Positions 10,888 to 19,515 of a DNA stretch of 64,000 bases are shown in pieces. The stretch is from assembly GCF_003334255.1 (NCBI RefSeq), contig NZ_QOWU01000024.1; one strand, given 5' to 3'. This DNA is from Escherichia coli. GTDB taxonomy: Bacteria; Pseudomonadota; Gammaproteobacteria; Enterobacterales; Enterobacteriaceae. Position 1 is the stretch's first letter; every line of letters begins with the position of its first letter. The notes beneath the pieces are model-generated. The model worked only from the letters and a program-made list of their open reading frames with translations, did not search any database and had not been told where the DNA came from. A program made the translations under genes and the position numbers.

Positions 10888-11844
10888 TTAAAACAGCGCC
10901 TTAAGCCTATCCAGCACTTGCATGGCGCTGTAGTAATCCAGACGGAACGTCTCGGTTCCCAGCGCATAAACCTGCTTGTTTTGTACTGCAGGCAGGTGCG
11001 CGAGCAGCGGATTAGCATAAATAGCATCGGCATCTTTCTGATCACCGGCGAACAGGAATAGTGACTCGCCATTTAACCCTGCAGCCAGATTTTCCCCACC
11101 AAGCTGAATGATGTCATGGCGTTTACCCTGACTTTGGCTGGCATTTAACCCTGCGGGTAACTTCGCCAGCGTAAAGCCGAGTTGTTCCAGCATCTGCCCT
11201 TGTGCTGATTCTGGCGTCCAGAGATTGGCACTGTGTGCAGCGGCAGTATAGACAATGGCAGTGACCGGCTGCGGCGGTAATTTGATTTGCTCTTTCGCCG
11301 CCGCCAGTTGCTTATCAAACTGCGCAATCCGCTCTGCCGCTTGTTTCTCATGCCCGGTAATTTCGCCAAGTTGCGTTAACAGCGACTGCCAGCTTTTGTC
11401 GTCGTAATTGATGATTAATGTCGGGGCGATGGTGGAAAGCTGATCATACAGTGCCAGCGCCGAATCCCCGCCGGTTGCGCTAATTAAAATCAGATCCGGC
11501 ATTTGCGCGGCAACGGCTTCGGCGCTCGGTTCGCCGATATAGAGCCGTTGCAGTTTGCGTTCTTTCGCCACCTTGCTCCACTGGCGTAAAAAGCCCTGGT
11601 CATCCGCGACGCGGTTATTCGGCGTGGTCGCGCCGCTGGCGATCACCGGAGCATCAATCGCCAGCAGTGAGCCGGTCAGGGTGACGCTGGTGGAAACAAT
11701 ACGCTGCGGCTGGCTTTCCAGTGTATGTGTGCCACGGCTGTCAGTAATCTGACGCGGCCAGTCAGCGGCCTGAACTGCGGCTATTCCTGAAAGCAAAAGT
11801 CCTGTTAATAGAAGGGCGTTGCGGTAGAGCGGGGCGAGTCTCAC
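10888..11844 (-). CDS. fepB: Periplasmic ferric enterobactin-binding protein
   Basis: 318-aa ORF with signal peptide, GTG start (cac at 11842-11844). Confidence 0.9.
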
Positions 11845-11910
11845 AAATCAGCTTCCTGTTATTAATAAGGTTAAGGGCGTAATGACAAATTCGACAAAGC
11901 GCACAATCCG

Positions 11911-12013
11911 TCCCCTCGCCCCTTTGGGGAGAGGGTTAGGGTGAGGGGAACAGCCAGCACTGGTGCGAACATTAACCCTCACCCCAGCCCTCACCCTGGA
12001 AGGGAGAGGGGGC
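11911..12013. repeat. GC-rich interspersed intergenic repeat with inverted GGGAGAGGG / CCCTC motifs
   Basis: tcccctcgcccctttggggagagggttagggtgagggg with a second partial inverted copy (ccctcaccccagccctcaccctggaagggagaggggg); nearly identical to the reverse complement of the sequence at 19385-19424. Confidence 0.6.
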
Positions 12014-12171
12014 AGAACGGCGCAGGACATCACATTGCGCTTATGCGAATCCATCAATAATGCTTCTCATTTTCATTGTAACCACAACCAGATGCAACCC
12101 CGAGTTGCAGATTGCGTTACCTCAAGAGTTGACATAGTGCGCGTTTGCTTTTAGGTTAGCGACCGAAAATA

Positions 12172-12192
12172 TAAATGATAATCATTATTAAA
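12172..12192. promoter_or_regulatory. Fur box of the entCEBAH promoter (fepB-entC divergent region)
   Basis: aaatgataatcattattaaag contains a near-perfect GATAATCATTAT Fur-consensus core, about 30 bp upstream of the entC start. Confidence 0.65.
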
Positions 12193-12218
12193 GCCTTTAT
12201 CATTTTGTGGAGGATGAT

Positions 12219-13394
12219 ATGGATACGTCACTGGCTGAGGAAGTACAGCAGACCATGGCAACACTTGCGCCCAATCGCTTTTTCTTTATGTCGCCGTACC
12301 GCAGTTTTACGACGTCAGGATGTTTCGCCCGCTTCGATGAACCGGCTGTGAACGGGGATTCGCCCGACAGTCCCTTCCAGCAAAAACTCGCCGCGCTGTT
12401 TGCCGATGCCAAAGCGCAGGGCATCAAAAATCCGGTGATGGTCGGGGCGATTCCCTTCGATCCACGTCAGCCTTCGTCGCTGTATATTCCTGAATCCTGG
12501 CAGTCGTTCTCCCGTCAGGAAAAACAAGCTTCCGCACGCCGTTTCACCCGCAGCCAGTCGCTGAATGTGGTGGAACGCCAGGCAATTCCGGAGCAAACCA
12601 CGTTTGAACAGATGGTTGCCCGCGCCGCCGCACTTACCGCCACGCCGCAGGTCGACAAAGTGGTGTTGTCACGGTTGATTGATATCACCACTGACGCCGC
12701 CATTGATAGTGGCGTATTGCTGGAACGGTTGATTGCGCAAAACCCGGTTAGTTACAACTTCCATGTTCCGCTGGCTGATGGTGGCGTCCTGCTGGGGGCC
12801 AGCCCGGAACTGCTGCTACGTAAAGACGGCGAGCGTTTTAGCTCCATTCCGTTAGCCGGTTCCGCGCGTCGTCAGCCGGATGAAGTGCTCGATCGCGAAG
12901 CAGGTAATCGTCTGCTGGCGTCAGAAAAAGATCGCCATGAACATGAACTGGTGACTCAGGCGATGAAAGAGGTACTGCGCGAACGCAGTAGTGAGTTACA
13001 CGTTCCTTCTTCTCCACAGCTGATCACCACGCCGACGCTGTGGCATCTCGCAACTCCCTTTGAAGGTAAAGCGAATTCGCAAGAAAACGCACTGACTCTG
13101 GCCTGTCTGCTGCATCCGACCCCCGCGCTGAGCGGTTTCCCGCATCAGGCCGCGACCCAGGTTATTGCTGAACTGGAACCGTTCGACCGCGAACTGTTTG
13201 GCGGCATTGTGGGTTGGTGTGACAGCGAAGGTAACGGCGAATGGGTGGTGACCATCCGCTGCGCGAAGCTGCGGGAAAATCAGGTGCGTCTGTTTGCCGG
13301 AGCGGGGATTGTGCCTGCGTCGTCACCGTTGGGTGAGTGGCGCGAAACAGGCGTCAAACTTTCTACCATGTTGAACGTTTTTGGATTGCATTAA
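12219..13394 (+). CDS. entC: Isochorismate synthase
   Basis: Start trimmed to [11 protein letters not shown] (ATG 12219), 391 aa, chorismate-binding family. Confidence 0.9.
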
Positions 13395-19340: not shown

Positions 19341-19424
19341 GTGAGGGGGGGATGTTGGCGAATGTTGGCTTAGTGCCCAGGGTTCCCTCTCACCCTAACC
19401 CTCTCCCCGGTGGGGCGAGGGGAC
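19341..19424. repeat. GC-rich interspersed repeat, second copy in inverted orientation
   Basis: ccctctcaccctaaccctctccccggtggggcgaggggac; its reverse complement closely matches 11911-11948. Confidence 0.6.
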
Positions 19425-19450
19425 TGACCGAGCGCGTTGATAGCATTTGT

Positions 19451-19483
19451 AGGCCGGATAAGGCGTTCACGCCGCATCCGGCA
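19451..19483. repeat. REP (repetitive extragenic palindrome) element
   Basis: aggccggataaggcgttcacgccgcatccggc matches the canonical REP/PU consensus. Confidence 0.8.
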
Positions 19484-19515
19484 CTCTTTCAGCAACATGG
19501 TTAGCGGAGGCCAAG

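Follow-up and report, generated by a model that had tools for sequence, protein, structure and literature searches.

The GC-rich palindrome in the fepB-entC intergenic region of Escherichia coli K-12 is an inverted pair of BoxC repeats, and a third, solo member of the same family lies downstream of cstA. All three are very probably tolerated, structure-prone passengers and not dedicated regulators of the ent/fep genes. The pair forms the centre of a 186-bp palindromic block which, as judged from filled and empty alleles, is a derived insertion into an ancestral fepB-entC region of ~188 bp, and which would be transcribed as most of the fepB 5' leader. As the family, copies 1 and 2 and their strain variability are already in print, the finding itself is already known and matters little as a discovery; our additions to the catalogue, the polarity of the insertion and its placement in the leader, are modest. 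They give an unnamed repeat its correct name and remove its readings as a BIME, a terminator or an insulator.

BoxC repeats between fepB and entC

We analysed a stretch of 64,000 nucleotides of E. coli DNA (hereafter the window, whose positions are used throughout). The 2 kb around the repeat are 100% identical to MG1655-type genomes, and the window is E. coli K-12; an NC_000913.3 coordinate equals the window position plus 612,666, as checked against gene coordinates. The genes fepB (minus strand, start codon at 11844) and entC (plus strand, start at 12219) are divergent, and the BoxC pair lies inside the 374-bp intergenic region upstream of both. An earlier note on this DNA, written from the sequence alone, had located the repeat between fepB and entC. 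This holds for the two start codons, but the repeat does not lie after fepB, as the genes diverge. The repeat features are as follows.

11875-12060, no strand: palindromic block of 186 bp, made of outer arms, BoxC A, spacer and BoxC B
11880-11903, no strand: left outer arm TAATGACAAATTCGACAAAGCGCA, 71% complementary to 12036-12059
11913-11948, plus strand: BoxC copy 1, TMECO no. 7, type A with one stem mismatch, by consensus match and catalogue entry; blocks CCCTCGCCCC-TTT-GGGGAGAGGG-TTA-GGGTGAGGGG
11949-11974, no strand: spacer between copies 1 and 2, AACAGCCAGCACTGGTGCGAACATTA, kept in two other K-12 A+B pairs
11975-12010, minus strand: BoxC copy 2, TMECO no. 8, type B, by consensus match and catalogue entry; blocks CCCTCTCCC-TTCCA-GGGTGAGGG-CTG-GGGTGAGGGT
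12036-12059, no strand: right outer arm TGCGCTTATGCGAATCCATCAATA, inverted repeat I2, retained in the E. whittamii remnant
19385-19441, minus strand: solo BoxC (copy 3), core 19385-19424 plus ~17-20 nt of 5' flank, boundaries approximate
19452-19493, plus strand: REP (PU) element of another repeat family, GCCGGATAAGGCG...CGCCGCATCCGGC, by a sub-threshold naRNA4 match

The BoxC consensus, CCCTCNCCC-N3-6-GGGNGAGGG-N3-GGGNGAGGG, has two exact matches in the window, at 11913-11947 on the plus strand and 11976-12010 on the minus strand, and none in 100 shuffled sequences. Holder et al. 2015 list TMECO no. 7 at MG1655 624,579-624,614 (type A, one mismatch) and no. 8 at 624,676-624,641 (type B) in their Table 1, and give fepB and entC as the flanking genes of both in Table S2 (PMC4666352). 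These published coordinates equal window positions 11913-11948 and 11975-12010. The comparison with published consensus sequences that the earlier note had proposed thus returned an exact BoxC match for copies 1 and 2, and its guess at a Box-C-type element was borne out by both the consensus and the catalogue coordinates. Because the motif maps within a known repeat class, what the note had described is explained as BoxC.

Copies 1 and 2 face each other in convergent inverted orientation and are identical at 28 of 36 positions (copy 2 taken as 11976-12010 on the minus strand). The loop of copy 1 is TTA, as in type A; copy 2 is catalogued as type B, and its loop here is CTG. Around them lie an inner inverted repeat with 76% complementary arms (11907-11947 and 11976-12016) and the outer inverted repeat I2 with 71% complementary arms (11880-11903 and 12036-12059). 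The second copy had been described as a degenerate inverted copy at 11976-12012: it is indeed inverted and completes a composite palindrome, but it is not degenerate, as it fits the consensus perfectly as type B. The near identity of 11911-11948 to the inverted 19385-19424, also remarked on earlier, amounts to 34 of 38 core bases, with the differences in the 3-nt loop and at one position of the last G block; with the 5' flank included, 49 of 58 positions agree. A 22-mer, GGGGAGAGGGTTAGGGTGAGGG, occurs at 11926-11947 on the plus strand and, with one mismatch, at 19387-19408 on the minus strand, and had zero matches in 100 dinucleotide-preserving shuffles. Searched against Rfam at permissive thresholds, the palindrome gave only chance, sub-threshold matches to microRNA hairpins and no real family, and a tandem repeat finder reported a trivial ACCCTC periodicity and nothing else.

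BoxC was described by Bergler et al. 1992 and Bachellier et al. 1999, and PIT elements by Hoyne et al. 2000 and Hoyne & Maher 2002; Holder et al. 2015 equate TMECO, BoxC and PIT (PMC4666352). BoxC is also among the known E. coli families listed by Petrillo et al. 2008, who give a length of 56 bp and 32 copies. MG1655 carries 23 TMECO copies with five A+B inverted pairs, one of which is nos. 7/8, and in every tandem inverted pair a type A unit, with its TTA loop, is joined to a type B unit (PMC4666352). We also recovered the four other K-12 A+B pairs. Copies 1 and 2 are like the published family in every respect compared, namely sequence, consensus, coordinates, A+B pairing, intergenic place and presence or absence among strains. 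Copy 3 lies outside the strict TMECO pattern and inside the looser 56-bp BoxC unit.

To count copies genome-wide, as the earlier note had advised, we used a 51-nt query around copy 1 on 5426 complete E. coli genomes. All 5426 had matches, at 1-31 places per genome (median 17; 18-20 in K-12 derivatives), and of 86,255 places 86,203 were on chromosomes and 52 on plasmids. Among the matches listed, no annotated feature lay under a BoxC place. The repeat is thus multi-copy and almost entirely chromosomal and intergenic. Some B2 strains (ST131, BEN2908) are nearly free of BoxC, which agrees with the published contrast between 29 copies in strain 55989 and one in IHE3034 (PMC4666352). In the ent/fep clusters of Enterobacter, Lelliottia, Leclercia and Silvania, strict TMECO matches recur at about -5400 (often paired), -1192, +4850 and +7240 relative to the entC start, and none were found in the ent/fep loci of Citrobacter, Salmonella, Klebsiella or Kosakonia.

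Insertion of the 186-bp block

The full 374-bp fepB-entC region is present in 2755 of 5426 E. coli genomes. In E. coli without the block, sampled from the remainder, the match begins at window position 12058, and in ST131 and O145:H28 the region is 188 bp long. A scan with EntC, using one genome per species, returned 80 loci, 78 of them scorable for spacer length. The fepB-entC spacer measured 166-189 bp in 63 of these 78 relatives' loci, among them E. albertii, Citrobacter, S. enterica diarizonae, Enterobacter, Klebsiella, Kosakonia and others. The other 15 spacers were 111 bp (one short MAG contig) or 232-453 bp (14 loci), and from these 15 we read the sequences of E. whittamii and S. enterica arizonae. 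Among the other Escherichia, Citrobacter, Salmonella, Enterobacter and Klebsiella loci examined, the block was not found, with the exception of a 100-nt remnant in E. whittamii that kept the arms and lost the centre. As the outgroups and half of E. coli do without the block, this comparison of alleles identifies it as a derived insertion into an ancestral region of ~188 bp. At site 7/8, Holder et al. found 26 of 56 strains unchanged, 17 missing and 13 mutated (Table S3), classed the site as an "intergenic deletion" and left inserted versus deleted undecided (PMC4666352); the distribution described here settles that question for this site.

We read the junctions by eye from the raw sequences, since MAFFT, given filled and empty alleles together, put the left flank in the wrong place. 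At the junction the empty site has ...GAAGTTAA|TGCTTCTCATTTTC..., and the filled site of K-12 reads ...AAGGTTAA|GGGCGTAATGACAAA...CCATCAATAA|TGCTTCTC..., with 186 extra bases at 11875-12060. Because TAA stands at both junctions, the boundary of the block is ambiguous by 3 nt. Immediately left of the insertion (11865-11874), filled K-12 and E. whittamii read AAGGTTAA, and empty E. coli and E. albertii read GAAGTTAA.

Comparison with other K-12 pairs suggests what was copied. Against the ygfF-gcvP and alx-sstT pairs, fepB-entC is identical at 22-23 of 28 positions in the spacer and at 22-23 of 38 in the left arm. Between pairs, the BoxC cores agree at 31-36 of 35-37 positions and the right arm diverges after ~12 nt; the cores (36/36 and 31-32/35) are far better conserved than the right arm (17-23/57). 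Part of the left outer arm, the motif ATGACAA...AAAG.GC, is partly common to other pairs as well. Since the spacer and some of the arm sequence recur in three K-12 pairs, it was the whole composite that was copied.

A second pair could be compared in filled and empty form at hrpB-mrcB, where the alleles differ by ~106 nt, 11 nt are replaced and no clean target duplication was seen. A transposon-like mechanism is therefore not established. At this junction the filled allele reads T|AAGGTT and the empty allele T|GAAG; AAGGTT may be part of the inserted unit or a coincidence. At the third pair, alx-sstT, a 76-nt deletion in strain S14, bounded precisely by two CCCTCTCCC direct repeats, has left a simple hairpin; this corresponds to the published "palindrome effect". 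A third class of alx-sstT allele measures 778 bp against 561 bp, with ~217 bp of other sequence inserted.

These comparisons bear on whether the 186-bp block could be a MITE-type non-autonomous element with terminal inverted repeats, moved by a transposase acting in trans and leaving a short target duplication. Filled and empty alleles are clean, with orthologous empty sites at fepB-entC, cstA-ybdD and hrpB-mrcB; the ends of the block are inverted repeats with TAA at both junctions, the composite was copied as a unit in the three K-12 pairs, and copy number varies widely between lineages. Yet 11 nt are replaced at hrpB-mrcB, where a clean duplication is missing, the cstA-ybdD junctions are blurred, the arms are just ~30-70% alike between copies, and in AT-rich DNA a repeat of just 3 nt, TAA, carries little weight. 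We know of no transposase that matches BoxC. Nor is the family associated with transposons, phages or plasmids, according to Holder et al. (PMC4666352), and 52 of our 86,255 places were plasmid-borne. On balance we regard a MITE-type element as unlikely.

Other enlarged spacers were seen in the same region of outgroup genomes. The spacer of S. enterica arizonae is 308 bp, against 183 bp, and contains an unrelated extra block of ~125 bp adjoining the entC Fur box; further outgroup spacers measure 453, 344, 311 and 255 bp, and Kluyvera loci ~232 bp. Different inserts seem to have landed repeatedly in the fepB-entC region.

The BoxC pair in the putative fepB leader

The position of the pair relative to the promoters is defined by the following two features.

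12056-12073, minus strand: Fur box 1, the fepB operator AAAATGAGAAGCATTATT, sequence taken from PMC5020551
11845-12061, minus strand: fepB 5' leader of ~217 nt, 186 nt of which are the block; start codon located, 5' end inferred

Fur box 1 overlaps the fepB -10/-35 region, and Fur box 2 lies downstream of the entC promoter (PMC5020551). We located Fur box 2 at 12170-12187 and the entC TTGACA at 12129-12134. Published Fur footprints, after correction for the shift between genome versions, fall at ~12050-12080 and ~12165-12213 (PMC2189734). The last 5 bases of Fur box 1 (12056-12060) come from the end of the insertion, and in the empty allele the box reads AAAATGAGAAGCATTAAC. On the minus strand, the sequence reads TTGCAT-17 nt-GAAAAT (12097-12069), which would place the fepB +1 near 12061. 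This agrees with a leader of 217 nt, the length that Hook-Barnard et al. are said to have reported in 2007. Both promoters thus lie to the right of the BoxC pair. As the pair is downstream of the fepB promoter and of Fur box 1, it should be transcribed within the fepB 5' leader. The insertion lies within 1-2 bases of the inferred +1, and the leader minus the block would be ~31 nt long.

The 186-bp A+B palindromic block was inserted into a short divergent promoter region, a few nucleotides from the putative fepB start, and we propose that it now makes up most of the ~217-nt leader in K-12-like strains and would fold as one long hairpin in the mRNA. As RNA, the block is predicted to form a single end-to-end hairpin of -91.3 kcal/mol (z = -6.5), and a modelled leader of 224 nt, beginning at 12068, reached -94.7 kcal/mol (z = -4.85). 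Folded as DNA, single BoxC units did not surpass shuffled sequence in stability (z = -0.15 to -1.7), and hairpin energy by itself therefore does not mark the BoxC unit. Its signature is the three-block C/G/G design, which allows a triplex; in ViennaRNA, which models hairpins only, the C block pairs with either G block. As published, a BoxC core has a C-rich 9-mer followed by two G-rich 9-mers, and a single strand can form a hairpin plus a third strand in a purine-motif intrastrand triplex (PMC4666352). This was observed in vitro by CD and NMR for an oligonucleotide of the type A mm consensus class, the class of copy 1, and was detected neither in duplex DNA nor by DMS probing in vivo (PMC4666352).

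Like ERIC/IRU and other MITE-like palindromes of bacteria, such as Correia/NEMIS and RUP, the 186-bp block is an imperfect palindrome in the 100-200 bp range that occupies an orthologous intergenic site in some genomes and not in others; such elements are often co-transcribed with their neighbours as long hairpins. Unlike them, the BoxC core can stand alone as a unit of ~56 bp, and sequence similarity between the families is zero.

Given this position, the pair might have been co-opted as an RNA element, a 5' hairpin that stabilises fepB mRNA or tunes its translation, in which case strains with filled and empty sites would differ. The block starts ~1-2 nt from the inferred +1 and folds end to end, its allele is at intermediate frequency, the fepB leader matters for expression, and RyhB pairs with the 5' UTR at the Shine-Dalgarno sequence. 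However, the leader effect reported by Hook-Barnard et al. in 2007 reportedly comes mainly from an AU-rich enhancer beside the Shine-Dalgarno sequence, which is ancestral sequence outside the block. Moreover, about half of E. coli and all outgroups examined do without the block, and other BoxC members lie after genes and not in leaders. We consider such a co-option rather unlikely. The more specific proposal that the 186-bp pair is a mobile unit which landed at about +2 of the fepB transcript and alters mRNA stability or translation through its 5' hairpin appears improbable. If it were true, carriers of the block would tune ferric-enterobactin uptake unlike the sampled B2 and O145/O157-type strains and other enterobacteria.

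That the element might terminate or insulate transcription, or bind a nucleoid protein, had been raised in the earlier note, and a strong GC-rich palindrome in a regulatory intergenic region would suit such roles. An insulator would be expected between the two promoters, and the pair lies outside that interval, as both promoters are to its right. Scanning 11700-12300 on both strands for terminators revealed no stem-loop with a T-tract, and there is no intrinsic-terminator motif in the element; a terminator here would abolish fepB expression from the leader, yet K-12 expresses fepB. A promoter scan found none inside the element and three promoter-like hits, all in the entC Fur-box region. Published assays were negative as well: in the summary of Hoyne & Maher 2002 given by Holder et al., the element had no promoter or terminator activity and left RNA polymerase unaffected (PMC4666352). 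With the element also missing in half of the strains, all three roles are highly improbable. We searched the literature for more recent functional studies of BoxC/TMECO, and for Rho data or mapped 3' ends in the fepB leader, and found none.

We therefore favour the reading of the three BoxC members as passengers, in which the pair would be without a local function. It is hard to prove, since the filled allele stands at ~50% and the cores are better conserved than their flanks; core conservation could reflect selection, gene conversion or recent spread. The much-studied K-12 fepB leader appears to be largely a lineage-specific insertion, which matters wherever K-12 fepB regulation, or a vector derived from this region, is extended to further strains.

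A TTG-initiated ORF of 69 codons (11848-12057, minus strand) spans the fepB leader and stops 4 nt ahead of the fepB GTG. It is probably a by-product of a stop-free GC-rich palindrome; nothing supports it, and with the block missing in half of the strains it cannot be conserved. The ORF listing for the element contained mechanical ORFs only, none of them credible.

The cstA-ybdD copy and its REP neighbour

At cstA-ybdD, both the core and a 5' flank of ~20 nt of the BoxC family are present. The copy fails the strict consensus by one position, with its third and last block reading GGGTGAGAGGG, and is not among the 23 listed TMECO because this block breaks the strict pattern. Of the 5426 genomes, 4097 have the filled form. 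The cstA-ybdD spacer is ~57 nt shorter in E. albertii and some E. coli (CFSAN061768), as expected if a BoxC unit of the classical 56 bp had entered the 3' arm of the hairpin after the cstA stop codon. By this allelic evidence, the copy is an insertion polymorphism. In one B2 strain just 18 nt of the BoxC flank are left, which indicates a later loss of the core.

Together with the lost centre in E. whittamii and the 76-nt loss at alx-sstT in S14, this flank-only remnant argues that BoxC elements decay. We propose that they spread by insertion, as a ~57-nt solo unit into the hairpin after cstA and as the composite block at fepB-entC, and would decay through deletions that arise inside them, between short repeats of their own. 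The question left by Holder et al. in 2015 is thus answered for two sites: insertion of the elements came first, and erosion followed.

In Lelliottia, Leclercia, Phytobacter and Pseudocitrobacter, the cstA-ybdD spacer holds BoxC singles or pairs in a different layout, and in Citrobacter, Salmonella and Klebsiella it is short and empty. The occurrence of BoxC at this site in several genera suggests a target preference or some benefit there, one more reason why the passenger reading is hard to prove.

The REP that the earlier note had recognised at 19451-19483, next to the cstA copy, was recovered as a match to Rfam naRNA4 at 19452-19493, below the gathering score (38.2 bits against 59.5; E = 4.7e-4). 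A partial match is expected, since naRNA4 derives from a REP cluster, and the same model had no match on the BoxC copies. A REP is a simple stem-loop of 35-40 nt that occurs in hundreds of copies; its known partners are the TnpA-REP transposase, gyrase, IHF and Pol I. REP/BIME (PU) elements and BoxC are both short, GC-rich, palindromic intergenic repeats, often found after genes. However, their consensus sequences are unrelated, and BoxC has its three-block C/G/G design and ~20-30 copies; we know of no partner for it. The note's alternative guess, a BIME, has in its favour a REP 30 nt from the cstA copy, but the sole REP-like signal is this separate element at 19452-19493, and the repeats match another consensus that never occurred in shuffles, which refutes both REP/BIME membership and a chance similarity.

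In APEC O1:K1:H7 (B2), a different small hairpin, TAAGCCCTCTTAATTCAGGAGGGCATT, stands in place of the cstA-ybdD REP, so both repeat elements of this spacer are lineage-variable. The empty cstA-ybdD spacer of Salmonella enterica diarizonae contains a hairpin, GCCCTCTCC-AGGACAA-GGGGAGGGC, whose stems resemble the first two BoxC blocks and which could be a preferred target or a proto-BoxC.
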